Shown here: piece by piece, positions 16,844-36,544 of the stretch
Layout of the letters: every line of letters starts with the position of its first letter
Position numbering within the stretch: the stretch's first letter is position 1
Origin: a virus
Reading direction: 5' to 3' (one strand)
DNA: 40,731 nt
IMG/VR virus record: IMGVR_UViG_3300035670_000520
Coordinates: 1-40,731 of that record
Notes under the pieces: generated by a model
The model's database searches: none
The model's input: the letters and a program-made list of their open reading frames with translations, nothing else
What the model was told of the DNA's origin: nothing
Translations under genes and position numbers: made by a program

Positions 16844-17389
16844 ATGGCTAATCCATCCATTACCCGGCAGCCGTACTGGCTGAACAAGAAACGCATGGCC
16901 GAAAGCCTCGGTATTTCGGTTCAAGCCTTTGACAAATGGGGCGTCGAGCCGGTCGCGAAGATCGGCCGAGAAGCGTTTTACGACACCCGCGCAGTGCTGG
17001 ATAACCGCCTGCAGCACCAAAGCGGCAAACAGCAACCAGGGGCCGACGAAATCGATCCGCTCATTGGTTACAAGATTGATTGCGAGCGCTTGCGCCTGAC
17101 CAAGGAACAAGCGGACGCCCAGGCACGCAAAAACAAGGTCGGCGAGAAGGAGCTGGCTCCGGTCGGTTTCATGGTTTACGCGCTGTCCGACGTGTGCGCG
17201 CAGCTGGCTTCAGCCCTCGACATGACCCCGAAAAACGTAAAGCGCAAGCACCCCGATATCGCGCCCCGGCACCTGGAGGCGTTCGAGGGCGAGATTGCCG
17301 TTACGCGTAACGCGGCGGTCGATCTGGCTGATCGAATACCGAGACTTTTAGATGAATACCTCGCCACTCTGGATGAATCCGCTGGTTGA
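16844..17389 (+). CDS. terS: Terminase small subunit, lambda Nu1 type
   Basis: KKRMAESLGISVQAFDKW (HTH) and ERLRLTKEQADAQARKN parallel Nu1 KKQLADIFGASIRTIQNW and ERHRLTRAQADAQELKN. Confidence 0.85.
   Translation: MANPSITRQPYWLNKKRMAESLGISVQAFDKWGVEPVAKIGREAFYDTRAVLDNRLQHQSGKQQPGADEIDPLIGYKIDCERLRLTKEQADAQARKNKVGEKELAPVGFMVYALSDVCAQLASALDMTPKNVKRKHPDIAPRHLEAFEGEIAVTRNAAVDLADRIPRLLDEYLATLDESAG
17300..17311. repeat. Copy 1 of the 12-bp palindrome GTTACGCGTAAC (inside terS)
   Basis: Read directly: gccGTTACGCGTAACgcg. Confidence 0.95.
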
Positions 17390-19391
17390 GGCCGTTCGGC
17401 GTGGGTTCAAGAACCTGAAAAAAGATCCACCCATGACGGCCTCGGTCTGGGCGGACGAACATTTTTACATGTCCTCGGAGTCCTCCTATGGGGAGGGCAA
17501 GTGGACCACTGAGGCATTCCAGGTGGCGTTGCTCAACGCCATGGGCAATGACCTGATTCAAGAGTTGAACCTGATCAAATCTGCTCGGGTTGGCTACACC
17601 AAAATGCTGGTGGCGAACATCGCCTACAAGCTGGAGCACAAAAAACGCAGCGTGTGCATGTGGAGCCCTACGGACGGTGACGCCGAGGGCATCATGAAAG
17701 AGCACATTGAGCCAATGATTCGCGACGTGCCTGTGATCAAGGCCATGGCGCCCTGGTTCGGCAAGAAGCATAAGCACAACACCATCGAGTCGAAGACCTT
17801 CGAAAACCGCAAGGTGCTGTGGTGGATGGGTGGCAAGGCTGGCGGCAACTACCGGGAGAAAAGCCCGGATGAAGTCGGCTATGACGAGTTGTCGAGCTTT
17901 GACGACGATATCGACAAAGAGGGCTCGCCCACCTTCCTGGGTGACAAGCGTTTGGAAGGGGCGACCTACCCAAAGTCGATTCGGGGATCTACGCCGAAGC
18001 TGGCCGGTAGCTGCCAGATATCGCGGGCGGCCGAGGAATCACCATACCTGCTGCGCTTCCACATTCGCTGCCCGCATTGTCAGACCGAGCAGACCTTGAA
18101 GTGGGGCGGCTCTGACCAGCCGTTTGGGCTCAAGTGGTCCAAGGACGAGCTGGGCCAGGTGGATCACGCGTGGTACCTGTGCGAGTCCGGCAACGGCTGC
18201 ACCTTCGAACATTATGAAATGGTCCTGGCGTCGAAGGCAGGGCGCTACATCTGCGAGAAGACCGGAATATGGACTCGCGACAGCATGGAGTGGTTTGGCG
18301 CGAATGATAAGCCGATTCGCACCCCGCTCCGTGTCACCTTCCATATCTGGACCGTCTATTCGACCTTCACCACCTGGGTGAAGATTGCCGACGAGCGCGT
18401 CAAGGCTGGCAAGGACCGAGGGAAGATCAAGACCTTCGTCAACACGACGCTCGGGGAGACGTGGGAGGAAGACCTTAGCGAGAAGATCGACGCCGAACTG
18501 TTGTACGAGCGTCGCGAGGTTTACGGCTCCCAGGTGCCACAGCGTGCCCTGGTGCTGACAGGCGGCATCGACACCCAAGACGACCGCTACGAACTGCGGG
18601 TTTGGGCTTTCGGCAAGCATGAGGAGAAATGGCTGGTTTACCGTCGCGTGCTGACTGGCGACCCGGCCAGCACCGAGCTGCTGCGCCAAGTCGGGCTGGA
18701 GCTGCACCGCCAGTTCACCCGCGCCGATGGCACCAAGATGAGCGTTATGCGGTGGTGCTGGGACTCCGGCGGCCACCATTCTGAGACGGTCCGGGCGCAA
18801 AGCCGCAAGCATGGCTTGCACTGGGTTATTCCGATTTTCGGGGCCAGCACCTATGGCAAACCCATTGCCAACTTCCCGCGCAAAAAGGACAAGAAGTCGA
18901 AAACCTACCTGACCGAGGTCGGTACCGACAACGCCAAAGAGGTCCTTTACAACCGCCTCAAGCTGCAGCCGGACGGCAATCGTCCGGTACCTGGCCTGAT
19001 TCACTTCCCGGCCGACGATTCGATCTGTGACATGGACGAACTTAAGCAGCTGACCAGCGAAACCAAAAAATGGGTGCTGGTGAAAGGTCGGCGGGTGTTG
19101 CGCTGGGATGCCAGCAAGAAACGAAACGAAGCGCTCGACTGCCTGGTGTACGCCTTGGCGGCGTTGCGTATCAGTCAAGAGCGTTTCGGCCTCGACCTCG
19201 ATCTGCTGGCCAGTCAGAACCCGGAAACCGGGGTTTGGGAGGTGCCAGCAGAACCTGCACAAGCGGCCGAGCCGGACGAGCCACCAGTGCCGGCCGCTTC
19301 GCCGCCGCCGGCGCCGGTGGCGCCGCAACCAGACCACCAGCCTGCCGCCGGCGGCTGGGTTGAAACAGGAGCAAGCGGATGGCTGACGTAG
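17352..19391 (+). CDS. terL: Terminase large subunit, lambda gpA type
   Basis: 679-aa ORF following Nu1 with a short overlap; N-terminal WADEHFYMSSESS...GKW...FQ pattern typical of the GpA family. Confidence 0.9.
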   Translation: MNTSPLWMNPLVEAVRRGFKNLKKDPPMTASVWADEHFYMSSESSYGEGKWTTEAFQVALLNAMGNDLIQELNLIKSARVGYTKMLVANIAYKLEHKKRSVCMWSPTDGDAEGIMKEHIEPMIRDVPVIKAMAPWFGKKHKHNTIESKTFENRKVLWWMGGKAGGNYREKSPDEVGYDELSSFDDDIDKEGSPTFLGDKRLEGATYPKSIRGSTPKLAGSCQISRAAEESPYLLRFHIRCPHCQTEQTLKWGGSDQPFGLKWSKDELGQVDHAWYLCESGNGCTFEHYEMVLASKAGRYICEKTGIWTRDSMEWFGANDKPIRTPLRVTFHIWTVYSTFTTWVKIADERVKAGKDRGKIKTFVNTTLGETWEEDLSEKIDAELLYERREVYGSQVPQRALVLTGGIDTQDDRYELRVWAFGKHEEKWLVYRRVLTGDPASTELLRQVGLELHRQFTRADGTKMSVMRWCWDSGGHHSETVRAQSRKHGLHWVIPIFGASTYGKPIANFPRKKDKKSKTYLTEVGTDNAKEVLYNRLKLQPDGNRPVPGLIHFPADDSICDMDELKQLTSETKKWVLVKGRRVLRWDASKKRNEALDCLVYALAALRISQERFGLDLDLLASQNPETGVWEVPAEPAQAAEPDEPPVPAASPPPAPVAPQPDHQPAAGGWVETGASGWLT

Positions 19392-19609
19392 ATGCCGAAG
19401 AAAACTTGACCCCCCAACAAATGGTCGCGCTGTACATGCGGGCCGAGGCGGACCTGGTGGCAGGCGGCAAGGACGTGACCCTGAACGGGCGACGTTTCGT
19501 GTATGCCGAGCTGAACCAGATTCGCGACGGCCGGCTGTACTGGGAGCGCCGAGCAGCTGCACAGGCGCGCGGGGGGCGTCCGGGCTTTGCCTTGGCGAGC
19601 TTTGATTGA
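19379..19609 (+). CDS. Head-tail joining protein, lambda gpW type
   Basis: 76 aa between terminase and portal; the RGGRPGFALASF C-terminus resembles lambda gpW RRRGPAGFYV. Confidence 0.7.
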   Translation: MADVDAEENLTPQQMVALYMRAEADLVAGGKDVTLNGRRFVYAELNQIRDGRLYWERRAAAQARGGRPGFALASFD

Positions 19610-21159
19610 GTGGCATGAACCTGCTGGACCGGGCGCTTGCGCCGCTGTTTCCGGGCATGGTGGCCGAGCGCTTGCGGGCGCGTAACGTGATCATGGCGTT
19701 TGAAGCCGCCAAGCCAACGCGGACCCACAAGGCGAAAAAGCAGAAGGGCAGCGCTGACCGTTCGCTGAATCACACGCTCAAGTCTATGCGCGAGCAGTGC
19801 CGAAAACTGGACGAGGATCACGACATTGTCACCGGGCTGTTTGATCGCCTGGAGGAGCGCGTGGTGGGCGGTTCGGGTATCGCGGTTGAGCCGATCCCCC
19901 TGCACCTGGATGGCACAGTGCACCGCGAGTTCGCCGCCGCTATCAACGCGCTGTGGGGGGAGTGGTCGCTTAAGCCCGAGGCCTCTGGCGAACTGACCCG
20001 GCCGCAGATGGAGCGCCTGGTGTGCCGAAGCTGGCTGCGCGATGGTGAGGCGCTTGCCCAGGAACTGATGGGCAAAGTGCCGAACTATCAGTATTTGCAC
20101 GGCGTGCCCTATGCCCTGGAGCTGCTGGAGGCGGATTATCTGCCGGTCGAGTACACCGACGACTCCAAGGGCATCGTCCAGGGTATCGAGCGCAACGGGT
20201 GGCGTCGCGTGCAGGCTTACCACCTGTACAAGGCGCACCCTGCAGGGCTGCGCGGCGCCCTGGCGCAAAACACCAAACGCGTGCCAGCTGAGCAGGTGAT
20301 TCACGTTGCCTACCGCAAGCGCATTGGCCAAAGCCGTGGCCAGCCGCTCCTGCACGCGGTCCTGATCCGCCTGGCGGATATTAAGGATTACGAGGAAAGC
20401 GAGCGGGTGGCAGCGCGGATCAGTGCGGCGCTGGCCATGTACATCAAGAAAGGTACCCCCGACGACTATGTGCCGGCGGGGCCGGGCGAGACGCGGGCCG
20501 AGCGTACTTTCCCCATTGCGCCTGGCGTAGTGGTCGACACCCTGCTGCCGGGTGAAGACGTGGGCATGATCGAAAGCAACCGGCCTAACCCATTCCTTGA
20601 GGGGTTCCGCAATGGGCAGCTCAAGGCGGTGGCGGCCGGCACGCGGGGCACCTATTCCAGCGTGGCGCGCAGCTACGACGGTACCTATTCGGCGCAACGC
20701 CAGGAACTGGTCGAGGGCCAGCTGGGTTACGACCTGCTGCAGCATGAGTTCATCGACTACTGGTGCCGCCGTGTGTACCGCAACTGGCTGCGCATGGCGA
20801 TCCTGAGCGGGCAGCTCAAGGTGCCGCCAGACGTGGACCCCCGGACGATCTATGGCGCGTTCTATCAAGGCCCTGTGATGCCGTGGATCAACCCGGTGCA
20901 TGAGGCTGACGCCTGGGAAACGCTGATCAAGATCGGTGGTGCTGACGAGGCGGAAATGGCCCGCTCGCGTGGCCGCAACCCGTCCGAGCTTAAGGCGTCT
21001 CGCAAGTCCGAGATTGCCGCCAACCGGGCAGACGATCTGGTGTTCAGTTCGGATGCCTACCACGAGTATTACGGGAGAAATCAACCCAATGAACAAACGA
21101 AGAAAGCGGGCAAGGCTGCCCGTCCTGGGGCCGCGCGGGGCGGTGGCGGCGACGGCTGA
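19606..21159 (+). CDS. Portal protein, lambda gpB family (ATG at 19615 is an alternative start)
   Basis: 517-aa ORF in the portal position after gpW; TTG at 19606 overlaps the upstream stop. Confidence 0.85.
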   Translation: MSGMNLLDRALAPLFPGMVAERLRARNVIMAFEAAKPTRTHKAKKQKGSADRSLNHTLKSMREQCRKLDEDHDIVTGLFDRLEERVVGGSGIAVEPIPLHLDGTVHREFAAAINALWGEWSLKPEASGELTRPQMERLVCRSWLRDGEALAQELMGKVPNYQYLHGVPYALELLEADYLPVEYTDDSKGIVQGIERNGWRRVQAYHLYKAHPAGLRGALAQNTKRVPAEQVIHVAYRKRIGQSRGQPLLHAVLIRLADIKDYEESERVAARISAALAMYIKKGTPDDYVPAGPGETRAERTFPIAPGVVVDTLLPGEDVGMIESNRPNPFLEGFRNGQLKAVAAGTRGTYSSVARSYDGTYSAQRQELVEGQLGYDLLQHEFIDYWCRRVYRNWLRMAILSGQLKVPPDVDPRTIYGAFYQGPVMPWINPVHEADAWETLIKIGGADEAEMARSRGRNPSELKASRKSEIAANRADDLVFSSDAYHEYYGRNQPNEQTKKAGKAARPGAARGGGGDG

Positions 21160-23164
21160 CCCCGCCGCACAGACCTGGTACACGCTGCGCGCATCCAGTC
21201 AGCGCGGCGTGGTCGATCTGATGCTGTACGGCGAGATTGGCGCCTGGGGCATCTCGGCTAACCAGTTTGCCCGCGACCTAAAAGCCCTCGGTGACGTGTC
21301 ACAGATCAATTTGCACGTTCATTCCCCCGGCGGCGACGTGTTCGAAGGCATGGCCATGTACAACCTCCTGCGCAACCACCCGGCGCGCGTGGAGGGCACT
21401 GTGGACGGTCTGGCCGCTTCCATGGGTAGCGTGATCCTGATGGCTTCCAACGTTATCCGCATTCCTGAAAACGCCATGATCATGGTGCACAAGCCCTGGG
21501 GCATTCAGGGCGGGGATGCGGACGAGATGCGCCGTTACGCCGATCTGCTGGACAAGGTCGAGGATTCCCTGGTGGCGGCGTACACCAACAAGACCGGCAA
21601 GACCGCCGAGGAAGTCAAAGCGCTGCTTTCCGCTGAAACGTGGATGACCGGCGCCGAGGCTGTAGAGCTGGGCTTTGCCGATGAACTGGTGGGGGCGCTG
21701 GAAGCCTTCGCCGCACTCAACTCTCAACGCATGCAGGAGTACACCAACATGCCTACCGCTGCACAACCGATGTTCGTCCCGCGTGGCCAGACCCAGCCAT
21801 CGGCGCCGGTCAACCAGCCGGCACCACCGGCCCATCAGCCGCCGGCGAACGAAACCCCGGCACAGATCGAGGCCCGCGTGCTGCAGGCCGAGGCAACCCG
21901 TCGTTCCAGTATCACAGCCGCTTTTGCCATGTTCCCGACCGTCGAGGGCGGGGCAGCCCTGCGTGACGAGTGCCTGAACGACACCAATTGCAGCCTGGAG
22001 TCGGCCAACGCCAAGCTGCTGGCCCACATGGGCAAGTCGACCACGCCGACCGGTAGCCAAGTGCCTGGCCAGCACGGCCACATCTCCAACGGCAACCTGG
22101 TGGGCGACTCGGTACGCGCAGCCCTGGCGGGCCGGATTGGCCAAGCCGAGAACGAGGCCGACAACGCCTATAACCACATGAGCCTCAAGGAGCTGGCCCG
22201 CGCCTCGCTGACTGATCGCGGCATTCTGGTGGCATCGCTCAACCCCATGCAGATGGTCGGCCTGGCCTTCACGCATGACACCAGTGATTTCGGCAACATC
22301 CTGATCGACATTTCCCAAGCATCGGTGCTGGCCGGCTGGGACGAGGCGCCGGAAACCTTCGACCTGTGGACCAAGCGCGGCCGCCTGAGTGACTTCCGTA
22401 TCGCCAAACGTGTGGGTATGGGCTCGTTCCCAAGCCTGCGTGAAGTGCGTCCAGGTGCAGAGTACAAGTACATCACCACCGGCGACCGTGGCGAAACCAT
22501 CAGCCTGGCGACCTACGGTGAACTGTTCTCGATCACCCGTCAGGCCATCATCAACGACGACCTCGATATGCTGAGCAGCGTGCCTTACAACATGGGTCTG
22601 GCCGCGCGCGGCACCATCGGCGATCTGGTCTATGCGGTGCTGATCGACAACAAGCCGATGAGCGACAAGAAAGCGCTGTTCCATGCTGACCGCAAAAACC
22701 TGTTCACCGGCGGCGGCTCGGCGCTTTCGATTGAGTCGATGATTGCTGCCAAGAACGCCATGGCCACGCAAAAGGCGCAGGTTGAGGGTGGCAAAGCGCG
22801 CACCCTGAACATCCGCCCGGCCTTCCTGCTGTGCCCGGTGGCCCTGGAGGATCGCGCCAAGCAGCTGATCCGTTCTGCCTCGGTGCCCGGTGCCGACGTT
22901 AACGCCGGCGTTGATAACCCGATTCGCAACTTCGCCGACGTGATCGCCGAGCCGCGTCTGGACGATGACTCGGCCAAGACTTGGTACCTCGCGGCGGCCC
23001 AAGGGCGTGACACCATTGAAGTGTCTTACCTGGATGGCGTCGACAAGCCGTACATGGAGCAGCAAGAAGGCTTCACCGTCGATGGCGTGGCCACCAAGGT
23101 GCGGATCGACGCTGGCGTCGCCGCGCTGGACTCGCGGGGCCTCAACAAGTCTGTCGGCGCGTAA
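21089..23164 (+). CDS. Fusion of ClpP/S14-type prohead protease, scaffold-like linker and major capsid protein, 691 aa
   Basis: ATG at 21089 with GGGAGA upstream. N-terminal HVHSPGGDVFEGMAMYN...ASMGSVI...MVHKPWG is a Clp-protease motif set; a Pro/Gln-rich linker follows; the ~300-aa C-terminal capsid-like domain is in the same uninterrupted frame. Confidence 0.8.
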   Translation: MNKRRKRARLPVLGPRGAVAATADPAAQTWYTLRASSQRGVVDLMLYGEIGAWGISANQFARDLKALGDVSQINLHVHSPGGDVFEGMAMYNLLRNHPARVEGTVDGLAASMGSVILMASNVIRIPENAMIMVHKPWGIQGGDADEMRRYADLLDKVEDSLVAAYTNKTGKTAEEVKALLSAETWMTGAEAVELGFADELVGALEAFAALNSQRMQEYTNMPTAAQPMFVPRGQTQPSAPVNQPAPPAHQPPANETPAQIEARVLQAEATRRSSITAAFAMFPTVEGGAALRDECLNDTNCSLESANAKLLAHMGKSTTPTGSQVPGQHGHISNGNLVGDSVRAALAGRIGQAENEADNAYNHMSLKELARASLTDRGILVASLNPMQMVGLAFTHDTSDFGNILIDISQASVLAGWDEAPETFDLWTKRGRLSDFRIAKRVGMGSFPSLREVRPGAEYKYITTGDRGETISLATYGELFSITRQAIINDDLDMLSSVPYNMGLAARGTIGDLVYAVLIDNKPMSDKKALFHADRKNLFTGGGSALSIESMIAAKNAMATQKAQVEGGKARTLNIRPAFLLCPVALEDRAKQLIRSASVPGADVNAGVDNPIRNFADVIAEPRLDDDSAKTWYLAAAQGRDTIEVSYLDGVDKPYMEQQEGFTVDGVATKVRIDAGVAALDSRGLNKSVGA

Positions 23165-23184
23165 CCGCAGACCGCACCCAAACA

Positions 23185-23210
23185 CCCCGCCTAAGCGGGG
23201 TTTGTTGTTT
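23185..23210 (+). terminator. Hairpin / partial terminator after the capsid gene
   Basis: CCCCGC-ctaa-GCGGGG followed by TTTGTTGTTT. Confidence 0.6.
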
Positions 23211-23224
23211 CTGGACAGGAGAAA

Positions 23225-23545
23225 ATGGCCATGGCCAAGAACTACGTTCAAGCCGGCGGCAGCATCAGCCTGCCGGCTCCCACCGGCGGCTCAGTTGCCG
23301 GTGTTCCGCAAGTGATCGACAGCCTGGCGGTGATGCCGCTGCAGTCCGGCCCCAAGGGCACCATGATCACCTACCGCATCTGTGATGTATGGCGGGTGCC
23401 TTCCACCCCCGGCTTGAAGTCCGGCGCCAAGGTAAGCGTGCTCGCCGGCGTGATCGTGGCCGACGGGACCGCCGATGCGAAGCCTTACGGCAAGCAGCTG
23501 ACCGACACCGTCGACGGCTTCGCCGACGTGCTGATCGTGCAGTAA
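23225..23545 (+). CDS. DUF2190-family head protein (decoration-protein position)
   Basis: MAMAKNYVQAGGSISL N-terminus typical of DUF2190; lies immediately after the capsid gene; AGGAGA RBS. Confidence 0.65.
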   Translation: MAMAKNYVQAGGSISLPAPTGGSVAGVPQVIDSLAVMPLQSGPKGTMITYRICDVWRVPSTPGLKSGAKVSVLAGVIVADGTADAKPYGKQLTDTVDGFADVLIVQ

Positions 23546-23922: not shown

Positions 23923-24454
23923 CGAGGGGCCGCTGCATGAGCTGACCCAGCTGCATGAAGCCATGACGGCGCGTATCAAGGCGGAAATTCCACAGCTGGA
24001 GCACGTTGCAGACTACCCCGTGCTGGAAGAAGGCATGCCCATGCCGCTGCTGATCTACGCCATGACCAATGTGCAGCCTGGAGAGGATCCAGGCGACGGT
24101 CGGGTGTGCATCGTGGCGACGTTTGAGGCCTGCATTCTGGTCGAGTCGTCGCGCCCCAAGGCGCCCCTGCAGGCGGCCATTCTGGCTACCAAGTTGGCCG
24201 CCTTGCTGCATTACGAGCAATGGGGGCTGGATTTCACCATGCCGGTCGATGGTGTTCAGGCCATGCCAACGGTGCCTATCCCTGAGCTGGCCGAGTGCGC
24301 GGCCTGGGCGGTGCAGTGGCAACAAACCCTTTACCTGGGTGACACCACTTGGCTTTGGGAGGACCAGCCGCCGGGCTCGCTGGTGTTCGCCATCGACCCC
24401 GACACCGGCCCCGGAAACGAGCGCAACTACCAGTCGCCGGAGTCCATGGCATGA
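23897..24454 (+). CDS. Hypothetical neck/tail structural protein (start uncertain)
   Basis: ORF between the head and baseplate genes; GTG at 23897 chosen; ATG at 23963 is an alternative. Confidence 0.55.
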   Translation: MSEPQTSDNEGPLHELTQLHEAMTARIKAEIPQLEHVADYPVLEEGMPMPLLIYAMTNVQPGEDPGDGRVCIVATFEACILVESSRPKAPLQAAILATKLAALLHYEQWGLDFTMPVDGVQAMPTVPIPELAECAAWAVQWQQTLYLGDTTWLWEDQPPGSLVFAIDPDTGPGNERNYQSPESMA

Positions 24455-25053
24455 GCTACCCGACTGCGCAGCATGACCGGATGATTTCCGACCAGGTGAT
24501 CAAAGGGTATGTGGTGGCCGTGGACTTGGCGGCCGGCAGGCTGCGCATGTCGGACGGTACCGACTGGGTCAGTGCCTGGGTGAAGTGGCATGCACTGGCC
24601 GCCGGCAAGGCCCGCCATTGGCGGTCGCCTAGCGTGGGCGAGCAGGGCGCGCTGATCAGCCCGAGCGGTGACCCTGCCCAAGGCACGTTCGTGCCGGGGC
24701 TGTACGGCAATGCCGGCCCCCAGCCGGACAACCGCGACCATGTCGAGGTGTGGCGTTTCGATGATGGCGGCTCGCTGGTCTACGACTGGGAAGCTAACAC
24801 CTACACCATCAAGCTGCCCACGGGCACGGTCACCATCGAGGTCGGCGGCAGCAAGGCGGTGATCACCGACGACACGATCAGCGCCAAGACCACGACGCTG
24901 ACGGCCGAGGCGCAGGCCGCCACGATCAAGGCGCCGTCGATCACCCTGGAAGGTGAGGTGCTGATCAAAGGCCCGTTACGCGTAACGGGCGATATCAACG
25001 GCGGCGGGAAGATCATCGACACCGCCGGCAACACGGCAAATCACAAGCACTGA
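24451..25053 (+). CDS. Baseplate spike/assembly protein, P2 gpV type
   Basis: ATGA coupling; the ...GNTANHKH C-terminus and overall pattern are typical of Phage_base_V; precedes the W-J-I genes. Confidence 0.8.
24975..24986. repeat. Copy 2 of GTTACGCGTAAC (inside gpV; extended 20-bp palindrome 24971-24990)
   Basis: GCCCGTTACGCGTAACGGGC. Confidence 0.95.
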
Positions 25054-25054: not shown

Positions 25055-25080
25055 AGCCCGCATTCGCGGGCTTTGTCTTA
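25055..25080 (+). terminator. Hairpin after the gpV gene (weak terminator or RNA-stability element)
   Basis: AGCCCGC-attc-GCGGGCT followed by TTGTCTTA. Confidence 0.4.
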
Positions 25081-25367: not shown

Positions 25368-25694
25368 ATGATTGGCCTGGATCGCCGCACCGGCGAATCA
25401 ATCTCGGGCCTTGATCACCTGCGCCAATCCATCGAAGACATTTTGACCACGCCACTCGGCAGCCGCCGCATGCGGCCGGAATACGGCAGCAAGCTGCGGC
25501 GTTACGTCGACATGCCGGTCAACGATGGGTGGAAAAGCGCGGTACAGGCCGAGGTGGCCCGCGCCTTGGGCCGCTGGGAACCGCGCTTGAGGCTAGAGCG
25601 GGTGGTGGTCACCTCGGTGCTTGACGGGCAGATCGGCATGACGCTGACCGGCGAGTACCTGGGCAGTTCTGCCGTCATGGAGGTAACCGCATGA
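25368..25694 (+). CDS. Baseplate protein, P2 gpW / gp25 type
   Basis: [26 protein letters not shown] matches the GPW_gp25 signature. Confidence 0.88.
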
Positions 25695-26671
25695 TTGACC
25701 TTTCCCTGCTGCCCCCGCCCGACGTGGTGGAGAGCGTGGATTTCGAGGAGCTGTATCAGGAAACACTGGGCATCTTCCGCGAGTTCATGACGGACCAATG
25801 GACGGCGGCGCTGGAGTCCGACCCGGTGGTCAAGCTGATGGAGGTCATGGCCTACCGGGAAATGTTGGTACGGGCGCGGGTCAACGCGGCGGCCAAGGCG
25901 AGCTTGCTGGCCTTTGCCAAGGGCAATGACCTGGTAAACCGGGCCGCTGACTATGGAGTGGAGAAACTGACCATTCGCCCGGCCGACCCCGACGCAGTGC
26001 CCCCTGTCGAGGCAGTGATGGAAGACGACGAAGCGCTGCGTTACCGCACGCGGCTGTCGCTGGAAGCATTGTCAGTGGCGGGCAGCAGCGGGGCCTATGA
26101 GTTTCACGGGCTGAGTGCGTCGGCCGAACTGACCAATGTGTCGGTCGATTCGCCCCGCTTTTCCGGGGTGGAATTGGCACCGGCGGTCCGCGCCCAGCTG
26201 CCGCCAGGGGCCATTGTCGTGGTCTGCGATTACGACGCAGGCCTGGCCAACCCGCTACCCGGCGACGTGTCGCTGGCCATCCTGCCCAGCCTCACCAGCA
26301 CCACGCCGGTGGCGCAGCTGGTGGCCAAGGTTAAAGCGGCCTTGTCGGCCGAGGAAGTGCGGCCGATCACTGACCGGCCCCGCGTGGCCGCCGGCATCCC
26401 CTCCGACTTCAAGGTGGAGGCTGAACTGCAGATCGAGGAAGGGCCCGACCCGGATGTGGTGAAAGCCACGGCGCGGGCCGGCCTGAATGCGGCCATTGCA
26501 GACGCCCGCCGCCTGCAGGGGCAGTTGCCCCTGTCGGCCATCTACGCCGCGTTACACGTAACGGGGATTCGTAGCGTGACCTTGAAGTACCCGGCGGCTG
26601 GGGTGGTGTGTGACAAGCGGCATTACCCCAACTGTACGTCGGTCACGCTGACAACGAAGGTGGTGGCATGA
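25691..26671 (+). CDS. Baseplate protein, P2 gpJ type
   Basis: [25 protein letters not shown]-terminus typical of gpJ; ATGA coupling to W. Confidence 0.85.
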   Translation: MIDLSLLPPPDVVESVDFEELYQETLGIFREFMTDQWTAALESDPVVKLMEVMAYREMLVRARVNAAAKASLLAFAKGNDLVNRAADYGVEKLTIRPADPDAVPPVEAVMEDDEALRYRTRLSLEALSVAGSSGAYEFHGLSASAELTNVSVDSPRFSGVELAPAVRAQLPPGAIVVVCDYDAGLANPLPGDVSLAILPSLTSTTPVAQLVAKVKAALSAEEVRPITDRPRVAAGIPSDFKVEAELQIEEGPDPDVVKATARAGLNAAIADARRLQGQLPLSAIYAALHVTGIRSVTLKYPAAGVVCDKRHYPNCTSVTLTTKVVA

Positions 26672-29468: not shown

Positions 29469-30635
29469 ATGGCTGGATTCTTTCACGGCGTTACCGTAAC
29501 GCTCGTTGACACCGGTGCGCGCAATATCGCGCTGCCGTCCTCCTCGATCATTGGCTTGGTCGACACCTTTACCGAAGGCGCAGGCGCCACGGCGAAGTAC
29601 AACGACCTGGTGCTGATCACCAACGAGCGTGAGGCGGTCGCCGCGTTCGGTGAAACCTCGGCCATCACCAAGGCCTGCCGGGCTATTTACACCCGTGCCA
29701 AGGCGGTGATCGTCTGCTGCGGTGTGGCAAAGGCGGTCGACGCGGCGGCACAAACGTCCTCGATCATTGGCGGCGTGTTGGCCAACGGCAAGCGTACCGG
29801 CCTGCAGGCGCTGCTGGATGGCAAGAGCCGTTTCAACGCCCAGCCGCGGCTGATCGTAGCGCCTAAGCACAGCGCGACCCAGGCGGTGGCCACTGCCATG
29901 GATGCCTTGGCAGCCAAGCTGCGTGCCATTGCCATCGTTGACGGTCCCGGCACCACTGATGAGGCCGCCATGCTCTACGCCAAGAACTTCGGTTCTAAGC
30001 GCATCTTCATGGTCGACCCCGGCGTGCAGCAGTGGGACACCACCAGCAACGGCACCGTCGATATGCCGGCTTCGGCCTGGACGGCTGGCCTGTTTGCCTG
30101 GACCGATACCGAATACGGCTTCTGGGCCTCGCCGTCCAACAAGGAATTCGTCGGCATCACTGGCACCACCCGTTCGGTGGAATTCTTGGACGGCGACGAC
30201 ACCTGTCGGGCCAACCTGCTGAACAACGCCAATATCGCGACCATCATTCGCGACGACGGCTTCCGCCTGTGGGGCAACCGCACACTGTCGAGTGATGCGA
30301 AGTGGGCCTTTGTCACCCGCGTTCGAACGCTCGACATTGTGATGGACGCGATCATGTACGGGCATAAGTGGGCAGTCGATCGCTCGATTACCGCGACCTA
30401 CGTCAAGGACGTGACGGAGGGGCTGCAGGCGTTCATGCGCGACCTCAAGAATCAGGGCGCCATTGTCAACTTCGAAGTGTATGCCGACCCGGTGCTCAAC
30501 ACGGCCAGCCAGCTGGAGCAGGGCAAGGTGTATTGGAACATCCGTTTCACCGACGTGCCGCCGGCCGAAAACCCCAATTTCCGTTTCGATGTCACCAACC
30601 AATGGCTGACCGAAGTCCTCAACGCTGCCGCCTAA
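29469..30635 (+). CDS. Contractile tail sheath protein, P2 FI type
   Basis: MAGFFHGVTVTLVDTGARNI N-terminus typical of the sheath; 388 aa; followed by the tube gene. Confidence 0.9.
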   Translation: MAGFFHGVTVTLVDTGARNIALPSSSIIGLVDTFTEGAGATAKYNDLVLITNEREAVAAFGETSAITKACRAIYTRAKAVIVCCGVAKAVDAAAQTSSIIGGVLANGKRTGLQALLDGKSRFNAQPRLIVAPKHSATQAVATAMDALAAKLRAIAIVDGPGTTDEAAMLYAKNFGSKRIFMVDPGVQQWDTTSNGTVDMPASAWTAGLFAWTDTEYGFWASPSNKEFVGITGTTRSVEFLDGDDTCRANLLNNANIATIIRDDGFRLWGNRTLSSDAKWAFVTRVRTLDIVMDAIMYGHKWAVDRSITATYVKDVTEGLQAFMRDLKNQGAIVNFEVYADPVLNTASQLEQGKVYWNIRFTDVPPAENPNFRFDVTNQWLTEVLNAAA

Positions 30636-30647
30636 GGAGCCCCCGAC

Positions 30648-31157
30648 ATGGCATTCATTCCCCAAATTCTCGCCAACACCAACCTGTTCGTGGATGGCAA
30701 AAGCTTCCAAGGCGATGTACCCAGCCTGACCCTGCCCAAGCTCACCCTCAAGATGGAGGAGTACCGCCCAGGCGGCATGGATATGCCGATTGAGATGGAC
30801 GTGGGCATGGAGAAGATGGAAGCCAACTTCACCACCACCGGCGTGCGCAAGGACTCGCTCAAGTTCTTTGGCCTGGCCGATGGCAACGCCTTCAACGGCG
30901 TGTTCCGTGGCTCGTTCAAGATCCAGAAGGGCGAAACCCTCGCGGTCGTCGTCACCCTGCGCGGCACCCTGAAAGAGCTGGACATGGGCGACTGGAAGGC
31001 CGGCGACAAGGCCGAGCTCAAGCACGGCATTGCCGTCACCTACTACAAGCTCGAAGTCGGCGGCGAGGTCATTTACGAGATTGACCCGGTCGGCATGAAG
31101 CGTGTCATCAACGGCACCGACCAGCTGGCCAGCCAGCGCGCCGACCTCGGCCTGTAA
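30648..31157 (+). CDS. Tail tube protein, P2 FII type
   Basis: MAFIPQILANTNLFVDGKSFQGDV is typical of FII; AAGGAG RBS. Confidence 0.9.
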   Translation: MAFIPQILANTNLFVDGKSFQGDVPSLTLPKLTLKMEEYRPGGMDMPIEMDVGMEKMEANFTTTGVRKDSLKFFGLADGNAFNGVFRGSFKIQKGETLAVVVTLRGTLKELDMGDWKAGDKAELKHGIAVTYYKLEVGGEVIYEIDPVGMKRVINGTDQLASQRADLGL

Positions 31158-31202
31158 CCCCCATTCCTCTCGCAACCCTTTCCGTATCAAGGACACTCTT
31201 TC

Positions 31203-31499
31203 ATGAGCAAGCCAACCCCGAAGTACCTGACCCTGACCGCTGAGAACGTCACCGTTCGCCTGTCCAAACCCACCACCCTCAACGGCATTGATCAGGGCAC
31301 CATCACCCTGCGCGCGCCGACTGTGAAGGATATTCGCAGCTCGGGGCAGACCTCGGACGGTGACGAGGAGCAGCGCGAGCTGAACCTGTTCGCCTCCCTG
31401 GCCGACGTGGGGGTCAAGGACCTGGAAGGCCTCACCTACAAGGACTACAACCGCGTCGCCACCGGTTACAACTTTCTGGTGCGAGAGGACGAACTGTAA
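31203..31499 (+). CDS. Tail assembly chaperone, P2 gpE type
   Basis: 98-aa ORF between the tube and tape-measure genes. Confidence 0.8.
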   Translation: MSKPTPKYLTLTAENVTVRLSKPTTLNGIDQGTITLRAPTVKDIRSSGQTSDGDEEQRELNLFASLADVGVKDLEGLTYKDYNRVATGYNFLVREDEL

Positions 31500-31611
31500 T
31501 CCCGCGACCCTCAAGCACGCCGCCAAGCGTCTCGCGGCCGAGCTGCATTTCTCGGCCGCTGAAATCATGACCATGTCGTATGCCGACATGGTTTGGTGGC
31601 TTACCGATTGA
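31203..31611 (+). CDS. Predicted E+E' frameshift product (shift into the +1 frame somewhere in 31384-31496)
   Basis: The +1 frame is open over 31384-31608 and encodes ...NPATLKHAAKRLAAELHFSAAEIMTMSYADMVWWLTD, which resembles the conserved GpE' C-terminus (FHWPPSE...W); it has no own start codon. Confidence 0.55.
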
Positions 31612-31631
31612 GCTTGCACAGGGGGTAACCG

Positions 31632-34600
31632 ATGGCAAGCAAGGTAGCGTTATCGCTGGTGATCGGCGGCGCCGTCGCGTCGTCACTCGGTGCCGCGTTC
31701 AAGACCGCCGAAAACGGCATCCAGAAGCTGGAAGCCAAGGGCAACAAGGCCAAGGTGCTGAAAAGCACCATTGGCGAAACCATCAAGCTGCGCGAGGAAT
31801 GGAAGCGGGCGCATGACAGCGGCGCGGCCGGTGCCGACAAGCTGCTGCGCAAGTTGGACGGCAACCTGGATGCTTTGCGCAAGCAGGGGGTCGAGGTCGG
31901 CAAGCTCGGCCGCGAGTACCAGCGCTTGGGGCGTGAAGCGAAGGCCGCCGATCTGCAGCTCAAGGGTCACCAGCAGCTGCAGGCGGGCAAGGAATCGCTC
32001 AAGTCGAATATCGGCAGGGCGGTGGTGGCCACGGGCGCCGCCGCTGTACCGACGATGATCAGCGCGAACTATCAAGCGGTCATCCGTGACATTGCGATCA
32101 AGGCCGATATCGCCAACAAGCCCGAAGAGCAGCAGCTTAGCCGGACGGTGATCGACACGGCCAAAGACACCGGCATGTCACGCAATGACGTGGCCGACCT
32201 GGTCAACCAGCTGGTCGGCGCCGGTATGGAGCTGGACAAGGCGCTGTCGTATGCGCCGGTCGCGGCCAAGTTCGCGGTGGGTCAAGGCGCTTCGGGGGTC
32301 GACACCGCGTCGATGATCCAGGCACTGGAGCAAAACGCCAAGATCAGCGACCCCAAGGTCATGCAGCAGGCACTGGAGGCCATCGCCTACCAAGGCCAGG
32401 CGGGCAGCTTCGAGGCCAGCGATATGGCCAAGTGGTTCCCGCAACTGCTGGCCGGCATGGAAAAGAACGGCATCACCGGGCTGGACGCGGTGACCTCGCT
32501 GGGCTCCATGCTGCAGGTCCAGATGAAGACCGCCGGCAGTTCCGACGAAGCGGCGAACAACTTCAAGAACTGGATGGAGAAGATCGGCGCCGGCGATATC
32601 AAGAAGGCCTACAGCGATGTGGGCATTGATTATCAGGCGTCGCTGAATACCGGCCTGCAGAAGGGCATGAACGTCATTGAGGCGTCCATGGCCCTGGCCA
32701 TGCGTTATGTCGAGAAGACCGACCCGGCCAAGGCCAAGCAGATCAAGGACGCCCAAGCCAAGATCGACAAGGAGGTCGACCCGGAGAAGGCCAAGGCGGC
32801 GCTGGAAGCCCTGGAGAAAACCCTGCGCACCGGCGATATCTTCGCCGACATGCAGGTCAAGGCCGCGCTCACCGCCTACGGGCAGAACCGGGGCCTGTAC
32901 GAAGAACTCAAGGCCGACTCCAAGAAGGCCTCGGGCATCCTCGACAAGAACCTGGCTGAGCGCCGCGAGACTTCGGCGCAGCAGTGGGCCGAGCTGGGGC
33001 AGGCGGTGGACGACTCCATGCGCAGCATTGGCGATGCCATCCGCCCGGCCACCGACCTGGCCGCGCAGGGGCTGACCAAGGTTGCCCGTGGCATCACCTC
33101 GCTGTCGGATCAGTTCCCGTCGATAGCGATGGGGATTGGCGGTATCACGGCGGCGGTGATTGCATTTCTGAGCGCGCGCAGTGCGCTGCGTGTCGGGCGC
33201 GGAGTGCTCAACATTGCCATGGGTCGCGGCCTGGAAGGGCTCGCGGGCCGCGCCGGCAAGGCCGAGCGCGCGCCGATCAAGCTGCCCAAGACCGGCAGCA
33301 AGGTAGTCGACACCGGTCTGGGGCTGCTGGGCAAGGTGTTTTCGCCAAGCTCGAAAGTGCCTGGCCAAGCCGATGACCCTGGCGCGGCCGCCAATGACAC
33401 ACAGCGCGTGTTTGTGGTCAACGCCGATGCATTCGGCGGGATCGGCAGCAGCGTTGCAAATAGCGGCCCTGCAGGGCCTGCTAGGGGGGGTAGTCGCAGA
33501 AGTCGGCGCCGGGAGCGTCGGCGCGCGGCCCGGCAGGGCGTCCCGGCTCGGCCGGCGCCGACCGTTGAAGCCCCCAAGGCGCCCAAGTCTGCCGTGGCCA
33601 AGGTTCGGCCGCTGCCTGCAGCATTGTCGTCCCTGACCGCCACTGATGACCTGGGCAAGATGGCGCGCTCAATGCGGGGCGTGACCCGTCTGGCCAGGCG
33701 CTTACCTGGTGGCAACGTCATGGACGCCGGAACCGCCGCGCTTGATGTGGCGTTGAATGCCAAGACTCAGGATGAAAAAGCCGAGGGCTACGGCGGCGCC
33801 GCCGGCAGCCTGGCGGGCACCCTCGCCGGTGCTGCAGCTGGTGCGGCCATTGGTTCGGTCGTGCCGGTGATCGGTACCGCTGTGGGCGGCGCGGTCGGCG
33901 CCGTCCTGGGTGGCATGGGGGGCGAGTCCTTTGGTGGTTGGCTGGGCAAGCGCTGGTTTGGTGAAGATCAGCCAGAAGGTGAGCCCAAGGGCGAGGCGCA
34001 AGCACCTGCCGCACCCGGTGAAACGTTACGCGTAACGCTGGATGAAGCGCGGGAGGCCAAGGCCGAGGTAGGCAGTGACATGCCGCCGGCGGGCGAGGCC
34101 GAGGCGCCGGCATCGCGAGCCAAGCCAGCGGCAGAGAAGCCCGAGCCCCAACCGGTCGCCCCTGCGCCGAAGCTGGGGGCCACTGTGCGGGATTCGACGC
34201 CCGCCGTGGCGGCGCCGGTAGAGGCCCCGCGCGTCGCGCGTGAGCCCGAGGTCAAGGCCCCGGTGCGTGGGCCTGCTGTGAGGGCCGGCAAGCCGCGTGC
34301 GCCTGATACCGCCTTGGTGCGGCCTCAGGAAAAGTCGGTACCGCCGGCGCAGCCTGAGCCACAACCCGCGCCGCCTGCGCCGAAGCTTGGCCAGGTGGTT
34401 CGGGAGGCTGCAACCCCTGCGCCTGTGGTGCCGTCAGGGCCGGCCGATCCGTTCGTGGTCCCGGCACTCGCGGCCGACAAGGTGCGTTTCCCGGGAGCGG
34501 ATCTAGTGCGGCCGCAGGCTCAACCAGTACCGTCAGGGCCGGCCGAGCCACCTGCGCCGAAGCTTGGCGCAACGGTGCGTGAGGCAGCCAGTCTGGTGCC

Positions 34601-35036
34601 TGCACCTGCGCGGCCGCGTGAGCCTGAGGCGAAAGCCCCGCCGGTGCCTGTGTTGGGTCGCGCTGCGGGCGATCTGGTGAAAGCCCCTGCCGTGCCGATG
34701 CTGTTTAAGCCCATGGTCGATGTGGCCAGTCCACCGGCAGCGGCTGGGCTGGGTGAGGCGGTGCGCGAGCTGGCCAAGGCGCCGGCGCCCGTACTGCCTG
34801 CGCCCGAGCCCAAGCCCGTCAAGGTGCCCGAGCCTGCCAAGGTGCCGGCGCCGAAGGTGGAGCAGTTGTTTACCTTCGCGCCGAGCATCAAGCTTGACGT
34901 GCACGGTGATGTGAAGGACCCCGAGCAGGTTGTGCGCGAGCTGGAGCCGCCCCTACGGCGCCTGTTCGAGGCCTTCCAGCGCGAAGTCGCTTCGCGCATG
35001 TCCTCGGCGCAGCTGTTCGATCAACCCCACGTTTAA
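31632..35036 (+). CDS. Tail tape measure protein, 1134 aa, with a long Pro/Ala-rich repetitive C-terminal part
   Basis: Position after E/E'; coiled-coil N-terminus, glycine-zipper hydrophobic segment, repeats PAPKLG(A/Q)(T/V)VR(E/D). Confidence 0.9.
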   Translation: MASKVALSLVIGGAVASSLGAAFKTAENGIQKLEAKGNKAKVLKSTIGETIKLREEWKRAHDSGAAGADKLLRKLDGNLDALRKQGVEVGKLGREYQRLGREAKAADLQLKGHQQLQAGKESLKSNIGRAVVATGAAAVPTMISANYQAVIRDIAIKADIANKPEEQQLSRTVIDTAKDTGMSRNDVADLVNQLVGAGMELDKALSYAPVAAKFAVGQGASGVDTASMIQALEQNAKISDPKVMQQALEAIAYQGQAGSFEASDMAKWFPQLLAGMEKNGITGLDAVTSLGSMLQVQMKTAGSSDEAANNFKNWMEKIGAGDIKKAYSDVGIDYQASLNTGLQKGMNVIEASMALAMRYVEKTDPAKAKQIKDAQAKIDKEVDPEKAKAALEALEKTLRTGDIFADMQVKAALTAYGQNRGLYEELKADSKKASGILDKNLAERRETSAQQWAELGQAVDDSMRSIGDAIRPATDLAAQGLTKVARGITSLSDQFPSIAMGIGGITAAVIAFLSARSALRVGRGVLNIAMGRGLEGLAGRAGKAERAPIKLPKTGSKVVDTGLGLLGKVFSPSSKVPGQADDPGAAANDTQRVFVVNADAFGGIGSSVANSGPAGPARGGSRRSRRRERRRAARQGVPARPAPTVEAPKAPKSAVAKVRPLPAALSSLTATDDLGKMARSMRGVTRLARRLPGGNVMDAGTAALDVALNAKTQDEKAEGYGGAAGSLAGTLAGAAAGAAIGSVVPVIGTAVGGAVGAVLGGMGGESFGGWLGKRWFGEDQPEGEPKGEAQAPAAPGETLRVTLDEAREAKAEVGSDMPPAGEAEAPASRAKPAAEKPEPQPVAPAPKLGATVRDSTPAVAAPVEAPRVAREPEVKAPVRGPAVRAGKPRAPDTALVRPQEKSVPPAQPEPQPAPPAPKLGQVVREAATPAPVVPSGPADPFVVPALAADKVRFPGADLVRPQAQPVPSGPAEPPAPKLGATVREAASLVPAPARPREPEAKAPPVPVLGRAAGDLVKAPAVPMLFKPMVDVASPPAAAGLGEAVRELAKAPAPVLPAPEPKPVKVPEPAKVPAPKVEQLFTFAPSIKLDVHGDVKDPEQVVRELEPPLRRLFEAFQREVASRMSSAQLFDQPHV
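34025..34036. repeat. Copy 3 of GTTACGCGTAAC (inside the tape measure gene)
   Basis: aaaCGTTACGCGTAACGctg. Confidence 0.95.
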
Positions 35037-35045
35037 GGAGGGCCT

Positions 35046-35891
35046 ATGCCCTACATGGAGCAGCTGGAATCTTCCCTGTCCAGCCTGGTGGCAGCGGGGG
35101 AGGCCGGCCGGAAAAGCGCCGACGGCATGCTGGTCCCGCTCAACGGCGCTATCAGCAGCATCACCGGTGCCGCGTCCGAGCTGGAGAGCATCCCGTTTCT
35201 GCCGCCCGAGATGGGCGCCAAGGCCGGCCGGCTGGTGCGCAGTATCGGTGTGGCACAGGCACGGGTCGGGCAGATAACGTCGACCTACAGCCGGGCTGTC
35301 TCAGGCGTCAGCCAGGTGCAGGAACGCCTCGGCACCTTCAAGCAGATGGCCAGCAAGGTGTCGTCGGAGGTCAACCGGGTGGCTGGCAAGGTCAGCCCTT
35401 CGCTGTCCAACATCCTGCCCAGTGGCGGGCTGCTGGGCTCGGCCACGCCGACACCGGAGGCTGTGGCGCCTTTCCCGCACCTGCTGATCATCCAGCCGCA
35501 TGAGCCGAACGCCCAGCCGTATTACTTCAACCTCGGTACGGCTGCGTTTGACGAGCTGCGCCGGCAGGCGTCGTTTCGTTGGGCGGGGCAAGAGCGCTTG
35601 CGCCGCAGCGTGGCGCAGCAGGCCGTGGGCCTGGGTGAGGAAAAGATCACGCTCAAGGGCGCGATCTTCCCGAACCACAAGGCCGGGCTCAAGCAGCTCA
35701 ACACCTTGCGCTCCATCGGCCGCAACCTGCGGGCGTTGAACCTGGTGACGGGTTACGGCGAGGTACTGGGCGACTGGTGCCTGGTCAGCATTGAGGAGGA
35801 GCAAAGCCACCTGTTGGCCGGCGGTATCCCCCGAAAACAAGGCTTCACCCTGGAGTTTGTGAGCTATGGCAACGACCTGCAGAACGTCTGA
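35046..35891 (+). CDS. Tail protein, P2 gpU type, with a ~145-aa N-terminal extension
   Basis: The C-terminal half (YYFNLGTAAFDELRR ... ITLKGAIFP ... LVTGYGEVLGDWCLVSIEEE) fits the GpU pattern. Confidence 0.8.
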   Translation: MPYMEQLESSLSSLVAAGEAGRKSADGMLVPLNGAISSITGAASELESIPFLPPEMGAKAGRLVRSIGVAQARVGQITSTYSRAVSGVSQVQERLGTFKQMASKVSSEVNRVAGKVSPSLSNILPSGGLLGSATPTPEAVAPFPHLLIIQPHEPNAQPYYFNLGTAAFDELRRQASFRWAGQERLRRSVAQQAVGLGEEKITLKGAIFPNHKAGLKQLNTLRSIGRNLRALNLVTGYGEVLGDWCLVSIEEEQSHLLAGGIPRKQGFTLEFVSYGNDLQNV

Positions 35892-36072
35892 CGGTGATCT
35901 GCTCGATGTGATCTGTCAGCACCATTACGGGCACCTCAACGGCACGGTCGAGGCCGTGCTTGATGCCAACCCGGATCTGGCCAGGCAGGCGCAGCCGTAC
36001 CGCGCCGGCCTGCTGATCCGGCTGCCGGATCTGCCGGCGCCTGCAGTCGAGCTGCTGCAGCTGTTCGGCTAG
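35866..36072 (+). CDS. Tail protein X (P2 gpX type)
   Basis: DGDLLDVICQHHYG...VEAVLDANPDLA...LPAGLLIRLPD-like pattern of Phage_tail_X. Confidence 0.8.
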   Translation: MATTCRTSDGDLLDVICQHHYGHLNGTVEAVLDANPDLARQAQPYRAGLLIRLPDLPAPAVELLQLFG

Positions 36073-36144
36073 CCATGATGGCAAGTTGCCCGGCCTGGTT
36101 GCGGCCTATACCATCCCGGTCACTTGCATGGAGCTGAGGACAGC

Positions 36145-36474
36145 ATGGGTAATTCAACTGAGTTGCGGCGGTACAAATTAGGCTGGGGCAGTGAGTTCTG
36201 GCGGCGCATGAACTGGCTGTTTTTCGGCACCCTGGTAACGGTGGCGCTGTGCTTCATCCCGTTCATTGGATGGGCTGCCGGCGCCGGTCTGTTCGTGGTG
36301 ATGCTGTGGAAAGCCTTTGGCCCGCGCCCGGTGCTGGTGGAGGGCGATTGCCCGGCCTGCACCAAGTGCCTGCCCATCGACCCCAAGCATGACGACGTAT
36401 TTGCCTGCCCCACCTGCGGCAGTGTCTTGAAGGTGGAGCCGGACGCCTTGGCCCTGGTGCCGATAGACCGATAG
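36145..36474 (+). CDS. Membrane protein with a C-terminal zinc ribbon, 109 aa, inserted between the X and D genes
   Basis: ATG at 36145 with GAGGA RBS; two hydrophobic helices; CPACTKC ... CPTCGS. Confidence 0.65.
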   Translation: MGNSTELRRYKLGWGSEFWRRMNWLFFGTLVTVALCFIPFIGWAAGAGLFVVMLWKAFGPRPVLVEGDCPACTKCLPIDPKHDDVFACPTCGSVLKVEPDALALVPIDR

Positions 36475-36482
36475 CAACACCC

Positions 36483-36511
36483 AGCCCCGCCCAGTGCGGG
36501 GCTTTTCTTTT
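36483..36511 (+). terminator. Rho-independent terminator
   Basis: AGCCCCGC-ccagt-GCGGGGCT followed by TTTCTTTT. Confidence 0.75.
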
Positions 36512-36532
36512 CAGCGCCGGCGCTCGCTCGGC

Positions 36533-36544
36533 GTTACGCGTAAC
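36533..36544. repeat. Copy 4 of GTTACGCGTAAC (intergenic, between the twin terminators upstream of gpD)
   Basis: ggCGTTACGCGTAACGaac. Confidence 0.95.

Follow-up and report, generated by a model that had tools for sequence, protein, structure and literature searches.

The stretch of DNA analysed here (‘the window’) is the whole of IMG/VR record IMGVR_UViG_3300035670_000520, 40,731 nucleotides long with a G+C content of ~62%; it is a circular contig, in which bases 1-127 recur at 40605-40731, and is the genome of a temperate phage, one of a group of Pseudomonas phages in which a P2-like tail is combined with a lambda-like head. Our subject is a short palindrome embedded in its late genes. The 12-mer GTTACGCGTAAC has four exact matches, at 17300, 24975, 34025 and 36533, all of which had been listed in an initial annotation of the sequence, plus a copy with one mismatch, GTTACACGTAAC, at 26551. 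As a flanking C and G are common to all four exact copies, we take the unit to be the 14-bp palindrome CGTTACGCGTAACG, which is the most repeated 12- to 14-mer of the window, and refer to the five copies as sites 1 to 5.

Site 1 (17299-17312; CGTTACGCGTAACG) sits at the 3′ end of the Nu1-type terS gene, where it is read as V-T-R-N, and ends 40 nt before the ATG of terL (17352). Site 2 (24974-24987), with the same 14-mer, lies in gpV as part of P-L-R-V-T-G, 66 nt before the stop codon and ~70 nt before a terminator at 25055-25072; here the symmetry extends, as had been pointed out, to a 20-bp palindrome, GCCCGTTACGCGTAACGGGC (24971-24990). Site 3 (26550-26563) is the variant CGTTACACGTAACG and falls in gpJ, within A-L-H-V-T-G and ~105 nt before the gpI start, whilst site 4 (34024-34037), again an exact 14-mer, falls in the tape measure gene, within T-L-R-V-T-L at about amino acid 798 of 1134; the shared frame originally proposed for gpV, gpJ and the tape measure gene (L-R/H-V-T) is therefore correct.

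Site 5 (36532-36545), also exact, is intergenic. On its 5′ side are a moron open reading frame (ORF; 36124-36474) and the terminator of that ORF; on its 3′ side, after 2 nt, comes the terminator hairpin that stands ahead of the gpD ribosome-binding site (RBS), and the site ends 41 nt before the gpD ATG. Its placement between two terminators, both on the + strand, is as first described: terminator A, GCCCCGCCCAGTGCGGGGC plus a T run (36484-36511), closes the moron that has been inserted between X and the motif, and nearly repeats the stem of terminator B, CCCCGCCCTGTGCGGGG plus a T run (36548-36573), which lies directly before the RBS (GGAG, 36577-36580) and ATG (36586) of gpD and is kept in nearly all relatives, whether the motif is present or not. 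The moron as a whole (36124-36511) codes for a protein of 116 aa that has a membrane segment, a zinc ribbon at its C-terminus and no family match; its insertion point is exactly upstream of the motif, and the X-D junction of many relatives holds other cargo genes. The sequence AGCGCCGGCGCT is found at 36513-36524, just before site 5.

That the copies do not arise by chance, as had been argued from the length of the sequence, is borne out by both types of control. Dinucleotide shuffles give an expectation of 0.06 for matches to the 12-mer at up to one mismatch, and of 0.00 for the form GTTACNNGTAAC, of which five are observed. When synonymous codons were shuffled within the late genes (n=300), GTTACNNGTAAC was counted once in 291 shuffles and twice in 9, against five in the real sequence, and no 12-bp palindrome reached a multiplicity above two. 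All copies are confined to the late region, again as reported, which for five sites is weakly significant when taken alone (~0.05, by our own estimate). Two near-copies had been put forward alongside the exact ones: that at 26551 is the conserved fifth copy (site 3), whereas the 11-mer GTTACCGTAAC at 29490-29500, in sheath codons 10-13, does exist but is a doubtful member. Of 106 sheath loci 72 contain it, with or without the gpV site and independently of the other sites; it falls within a stretch of A/T-ending codons at the start of the sheath gene, and is probably unrelated to the motif. The supposedly related palindrome upstream of the O-like gene, CTGACGCGTCAG, is likewise present (10648-10659), as a single 12-bp palindrome 27 nt upstream of the start codon, but has only the central ACGCGT in common with the motif, and we find no evidence that the two are related.

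Relatives were fetched from IMG/VR with gpV, gpD and terL as queries, and motif positions were counted over unbiased loci. All five positions recur: the 3′ end of terS (21 loci), gpV at around amino acid 210 (41 loci), gpJ at around amino acid 288, always as the AC-centred variant (41 loci), the equivalent place in the tape measure gene, where the motif is exact (21 loci), and the X-D spacer (36 loci). The gpV site is exact in ~35 relatives, in which gpV identity falls to as little as 64%; more distant relatives write the same LRVTG with CTG CGG GTA ACC. The positions are, in other words, conserved across divergent relatives.

Codon use indicates what it is that has been conserved. In the late genes of the window TTA makes up 1.2% of Leu codons (seven in total), with three of the seven inside motif copies, and GTA and GTT make up 6.5% and 11.8% of Val codons; given L-R-V-T and the phage's own codon usage, the probability of TTA CGC GTA ACG is ~1e-4. 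Amongst the distinct gpV sequences of relatives, TTA encodes Leu in 35 of 66 (background 1.2%) and GTA encodes Val in 41 of 65 (background 6.5%); in terS, GTT accounts for 17 of 19, ACG for 18 of 20 and CGT for 20 of 25, for background shares of 12%, 27% and 18% respectively. Adjacent synonymous positions, meanwhile, vary freely. Since rare TTA, GTA and GTT codons are kept at the sites whilst neighbouring codons and intergenic flanks drift, selection must act on the nucleotides: the sites are maintained at that level against codon bias, and the motif is genuine, is conserved and is under selection as DNA, in keeping with the suggestion in the initial annotation that its retention signals function.

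In the X-D junction of relatives, the layout runs from the X stop codon through a variable spacer to the motif, then 3-25 variable nt, a GC hairpin with a T run, GGAG and ATG; the motif is exact, whereas the sequence on either side is unalignable between subclades. In a separate subclade, a pair of hairpins upstream of the sheath gene has the exact 12-mer between them, and the two contexts are alike (stop/terminator, motif, 3-25 variable nt, GC hairpin plus T run, GGAG, ATG). Amongst the sheath-upstream spacers of loci L241, L246, L257 and L258, some hold the motif and others have a mini-palindrome of the GCGCTTCGGCGC type in that place. Across IMG/VR the exact 14-mer is found in 119 viral stretches, ~70% of them related to the late region described here; in the R-pyocin cluster of P. 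aeruginosa the motif is absent, also when one mismatch is allowed. A scan of genomes for TTG followed by the 14-mer returned 28 matches, 10 of them in Pseudomonas (X-D, sheath-upstream and one chromosomal site), with P. fluorescens, P. brassicacearum and other Pseudomonas species represented. On the chromosomes of three Pseudomonas species (L309 at 3739, L312 at 7154, L324 at 3868) the 14-mer follows an amino-acid permease gene, 2 nt past the stop codon and 3 nt before the terminator of that gene, the same stop-motif-terminator layout as in the X-D spacer; all three species may have inherited what was one chance event.

The manner in which the motif varies is also informative. Variants hold GTTAC and GTAAC and change only at the two central bases, such that the dyad CGTTAC-NN-GTAACG is seen with eight different centres (GC, AC, TC, TA, AA, CC, GG, AT) and fixed half-sites, as in an operator, and decayed copies carry changes on one side only. 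This pattern would fit a sequence that is read by a dimer, and not a stem kept by pairing.

The same 14-mer turns up in unrelated prophages, as the spacer of near-consensus sigma-70 promoters of the form TTG-CGTTACGCGTAACG-N4-6-TATAnT (L019, L117, L036, L047, L054, the Thauera prophage L301, the gammaproteobacterial L316, and L328-330). Promoter-spacer DNA is untranscribed, and in those elements the motif is therefore a DNA site. The motif promoter directly follows a Q-like gene in L036, L301 and L328; others are away from Q genes, that of L316 adjoining an integrase and that of L054 facing away from the lysis genes.

An all-against-all comparison of the ORFs around these motif promoters yielded one shared family (alignments A1 and A2, proteins P0001-P0120), a protein of 50-60 aa with the consensus KTNAERQxxYRxRK-x6-EVRGIFA-helix, which is encoded in the operon behind the motif promoter in all seven loci whose length permits a judgement. 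The family comprises at least 815 clusters, all labelled hypothetical, and has neither a Pfam match nor a homologue amongst the cultured phages of INPHARED. An AlphaFold model (pLDDT 83) predicts a helix at residues 10-23, a β-hairpin and a second helix at 36-51, with no leucine zipper. Within a collection of ~330 loci, the signature N-x2-R-Q-x2-[YF]-R was met almost exclusively in ones fetched for holding the 14-mer, and its spacing is that of the NxxAQxxFR signature of Pap1; in the Pap1/Yap basic leucine zipper (bZIP) proteins the signature RxxxNxxAQxxFR contacts a TTAC half-site, with the Arg contacting the flanking G (PMC7261193). We infer from this likeness that signature-bearing proteins may read CGTTAC half-sites.

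The signature also occurs in larger proteins. Proteins of 360-510 aa beside the 14-mer carry it in L024, L052, L118, L272 and L043, and this large form is found together with a late-region site on the contig of L272 and on contig 3300031372_000027 (L043, L073); L024 and L118 have the large form plus three window homologues each. Replisome-organiser proteins carry it too, and their genes hold GTTACG clusters that are read as VTRNVT repeats. In five unrelated phages the O-like genes (L058 3728-4624, L108 9137-10021, L003 46-948, L115 6811-7578 and L095 767-1618) have internal GTTACG/CGTAAC clusters, with an R-Q-x2-Y-R helix encoded just upstream of them; these clusters probably mark origins with GTTACG iterons. 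No GTTACG cluster is present in the O-like gene of the window, and the idea that the sites are origin iterons was dropped. Within the window, orf6779 (6779-7198) looks by eye like a diverged member of the small family but gained no support from BLASTP or hhalign and was rejected, and searches of PDB and family databases with a LuxR/GerE-type protein (7901-8356) and with the second integrase-family protein, rec2, as candidate readers returned generic matches only.

On this basis we propose, with a probability of roughly 0.5, that the motif acts in cis, as an operator-type site that a putative dimeric protein binds on double-stranded DNA (dsDNA), and is embedded in the late genes; amongst the functions originally suggested, a binding site for a regulatory protein is the one that fits best. 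Two inverted CGTTAC half-sites, with two free base pairs between them, would be read by a dimeric, sequence-specific protein at around five copies within the late transcription unit, placed for the most part where genes are tolerant, at their 3′ ends, and in the X-D spacer. We suggest that this reader belongs to, or shares its specificity with, the N-x2-R-Q-x2-[Y/F]-R family; as no member is encoded in the window, it would then have to act in trans, from the host or a co-resident element, or else be an unrecognised phage protein. Once bound, it might act on transcription of the late operon, as a roadblock or as a silencer in the lysogen, or alternatively might reinforce the intrinsic terminators that follow two of the sites.

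Several points weigh against this proposal. Sequence inspection reveals no -35/-10 elements around any of the five window copies, and with no copy in a promoter the effect of binding on expression is conjecture. The proposed reader has no match in this phage, HMM and six-frame pattern searches having returned no member of the small-protein family from the window, and the family is also missing from most relatives, within the parts fetched; a reader supplied by another element, moreover, would give the phage no evident reason to conserve the sites. The link from helix to GTTAC comes from co-occurrence and from the bZIP analogy, and a fold search with the small-protein model found no significant match to a solved fold. 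Lastly, the presence of the gpV site is associated with that of the gpJ site (21/4/8/12), an association that is confounded by phylogeny.

A wider version of the same idea is that one undescribed family of phage DNA-binding proteins has the 14-mer as its common operator, and that the late genes of this group are gated in trans. Proteins of helix, β-hairpin, helix form with a Pap1-like recognition helix would read CGTTAC as autoregulators of their own promoters, and related helices would serve in replication initiators with GTTACG iterons; phages with the P2-like tail module would carry the operator in their packaging and tail genes without encoding the protein, which might come from the host or a co-resident prophage, amounting to cross-regulation of mobile elements inside coding sequence. 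We consider this unlikely as it stands.

Every rival to the operator-type reading explains part of the anatomy, and fails at least one of the tests that we made. An RNA element, whereby the palindrome would form a hairpin in the late mRNA and act as a processing site, as the site of a translational or antitermination factor (nut/boxB- or Com-like) or as an mRNA stabiliser, would account for copies that share one transcription unit and mostly lie 10-110 nt before the next start codon (40 nt for terL, 41 nt for gpD, with more in relatives), and for intergenic copies set between a terminator and a second hairpin directly before the sheath or gpD RBS. A zinc-ribbon moron adjoins site 5, and Com homologues have been linked to cargo genes in Pseudomonas tailocin clusters (PMC4684702), which we count in its favour, as we do the one-base centre of the sheath 11-mer, which a hairpin would tolerate; that 11-mer, however, occurs independently of the other sites. 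The hairpin itself is weak (-1.3 kcal/mol, z = -1.4, no better than shuffles), and at sites 1 and 4 it goes unused in the predicted local fold; the local folds differ from site to site. Nor do the relatives' variants include a stable hairpin with compensatory or G-U changes: the stem sequence is fixed, and one-sided decay breaks the pairing. With the identical 14-mer sitting elsewhere in untranscribed promoter spacers, we regard an RNA role as improbable.

Recombination, through a recombinase such as rec2 (12415-13740) or through micro-homology at junctions where modules or cargo are exchanged, has in our view a smaller chance still. The sites do lie at gene boundaries that flank variable cassettes, with those at the gpJ end and upstream of sheath bracketing the variable fibre genes, and the X-D junction is a hot spot for cargo, the moron of the window having gone in exactly between X and the motif and brought a duplicate terminator with it; a second integrase-family gene is, in addition, kept beside Q. 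Against this, the unit is 14 bp long with arms of only 6 bp and a mostly symmetric GC centre, and therefore has no polarity; essential late genes would be deleted or inverted if copies recombined. Homologues of rec2 are found in relatives both with and without the motif (the latter including L290, L298 and L299), cargo is inserted at X-D without the motif as well, and the promoter-spacer instances in other phages would be left unexplained.

Two further possibilities are very unlikely, to much the same degree. The first is a centromere-like system of ParB/KorB type, in which dispersed palindromes are bound by a partition or silencing protein. Single palindromes dispersed through late genes, together with a tandem array in a related prophage, mirror two known centromere layouts; the array, at L022 8378-8756, consists of eight tandem 52-bp repeats with an exact 14-mer in each, between a Dam-like methylase gene and umuDC, and its role might be that of a binding array, a centromere-like site or a sponge. 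It has, however, no reader or partition genes nearby, scanning of the window ORFs with Pfam and PHROGs brought up no ParA, ParBc/ParB or SopB-like protein, and the presence of a lambda-type integrase (2311-3432) speaks, judging from the gene alone, against an extrachromosomal prophage.

The second supposes activator sites at late promoters, or loading sites for an antiterminator, of the Ogr, Q-binding-element or ops type. The sites are confined to the late region and precede intrinsic terminators at gpV and gpD, and the motif promoters of L036, L301 and L328 come directly after a Q-like gene; the window copies, though, lack -35/-10 elements, the conserved, Q-associated late promoter at ~15400 carries a different palindrome, TTCCGCGCGGAA (at 15402), and motif promoters are also found away from Q (L316, L054); a late-promoter or activator site gains no support. 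A Q-binding or reloading site in particular was rejected on the grounds of that other palindrome and because the Q protein of the window shows no BLASTP similarity to the Q-like protein of L036. The probable Q-dependent promoter itself (15395-15445) follows not Q directly but a low-GC moron (14636-15307), and is succeeded by two terminators (15475-15535) and then by the holin gene; in L139 and L294 the corresponding TTTCCGCGCGGA-N-TATA(T/G)C-AGCGTGT element comes directly after Q.

Restriction-modification, or some other DNA modification, of the palindromic hexamer ACGCGT at the core is scarcely credible, as the hexamer is neither enriched nor avoided (10 occurrences against 11.9 expected), no methyltransferase domain appears amongst the window ORFs scanned with Pfam, and 14 bp are conserved with two free central bases, the ACGCGT core being lost in variants. 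A packaging signal or Nu1 site, which had also been raised, is rejected since relatives with an unrelated terminase/head module keep the tail sites whilst their head genes are free of them. In the immunity region, three operator-like ATAAC-N4-GTTAT sites (10124-10137, 10147-10160 and 10169-10182) lie between the start of cI (10110, - strand) and that of a cro-like gene (10217); their half-sites are in the opposite arrangement, and a CI/Cro operator was discarded as a candidate.

As to the remainder of the genome, a lambda-type integrase with an arm-binding domain (2311-3432, - strand) is adjoined by a low-GC segment (1-2314; 45%) with three ORFs (215-1348, 1353-1706 and 1703-2314) that lack a family match, and which is probably accessory cargo; at the equivalent place the relative L272 encodes a 511-aa protein with an R-Q-x2-F-R helix. 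A CI-like repressor with HTH and S24 domains (9454-10398, - strand), O- and P-like replication genes, YbcO, a holin and a GH19 endolysin are also present. The tyrosine recombinase rec2 (441 aa), a CxxC...CxxC zinc-finger ORF (13703-14032) and the Q antiterminator (PF06530; 14029-14424) form a trio that is kept in relatives with the lambda-like head. The head module comprises terS (16817-17389), a gpA-type terL (17352-19391), a lambda-type portal and a ClpP-capsid fusion, and the P2-type tail module comprises gpV (24349-25053), W, J (25691-26671), I, fibre genes, sheath, tube, tape measure (31632-35036), U, X and D (36586-37629). In the tape measure gene CCTGCGCCGAAGC(T) occurs as three direct copies (34161, 34374 and 34551, spaced by 213 and 177 bp), which suggests an internal repeat in the protein. 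Amongst the cultured phages of INPHARED the window has no close relative, Pseudomonas phages matching in fragments only.

Regulatory DNA sites inside phage structural genes are seldom recognised, and the codon evidence presents what would be a clean case of dual coding, in which the same bases carry both protein sequence and a putative binding site. Should the reader indeed act in trans, expression of the tail and terminase genes would be controlled by prophage-prophage or host-prophage ‘cross-talk’, which would concern soil and plant-associated Pseudomonas and be of relevance to tailocins and to prophage engineering; tying a family of small proteins to GTTAC sites would, furthermore, offer a testable protein-DNA recognition code. 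The motif appears to be undescribed: the searchable literature yielded no description of it, the 12-mer being met only in cloning primers, and a paper on tailocins (PMC4684702) names no such motif.

It is nevertheless instructive to set the motif beside systems that are better understood. The sites of P2 Ogr/Delta, TGT-N12-ACA, lie at around -55 in four late promoters. Like them, the motif forms a handful of dyad sites spread over late genes, in a phage whose tail is of the P2 type; unlike them, it has another sequence and no accompanying promoters, and the window has a Q-type antiterminator and a separate late promoter. Its likeness to the Q-binding element of lambda, in the spacer of PR′, is seen in L036, L301 and L328, where the 14-mer fills a promoter spacer just 3′ of a Q-like gene; yet the motif is a perfect palindrome, is found also at promoters with no Q nearby, and is absent from the late promoter of the window.

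Closer in form are the dispersed operators of global plasmid and phage repressors, namely the KorA operator O_A (GTTTAGCTAAAC) and KorB operator O_B of RK2 and the C1 operators of P1. These too are 12-14 bp palindromes in several copies on one replicon, each with one dimeric reader acting in trans (putative in our case), and they share a similar GTT...AAC palindromic form. They are, however, found at promoters and are read by proteins of the same replicon, whereas the motif lies inside structural genes or beside terminators, and no reader was found in the window. The linear prophage N15 reportedly has dispersed SopB sites, and F tandem sopC repeats. As in N15, single inverted repeats are dispersed in a temperate phage, late regions included, and L022 (8 x 52 bp) provides a tandem version; the window differs in having an integrase, no Sop/Par proteins amongst the ORFs scanned, and an unrelated sequence.

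With respect to the half-site, the nearest likeness is to the sites of the Pap1/Yap (and PAR) bZIP proteins, TTACGTAA and GTTACGTAAC (PMC7261193), where the GTTAC half-site is the same and the candidate family shares the N-x2-(A/R)-Q-x2-(F/Y)-R spacing of the recognition helix. The half-sites of the motif are 2 bp further apart than in the Pap1/Yap sites, in which the TTAC halves abut or overlap, and the candidate readers, unlike Pap1, are bacterial and phage proteins with a predicted helix, β-hairpin, helix arrangement and no zipper; the similarity between the two helices may be a convergent one.

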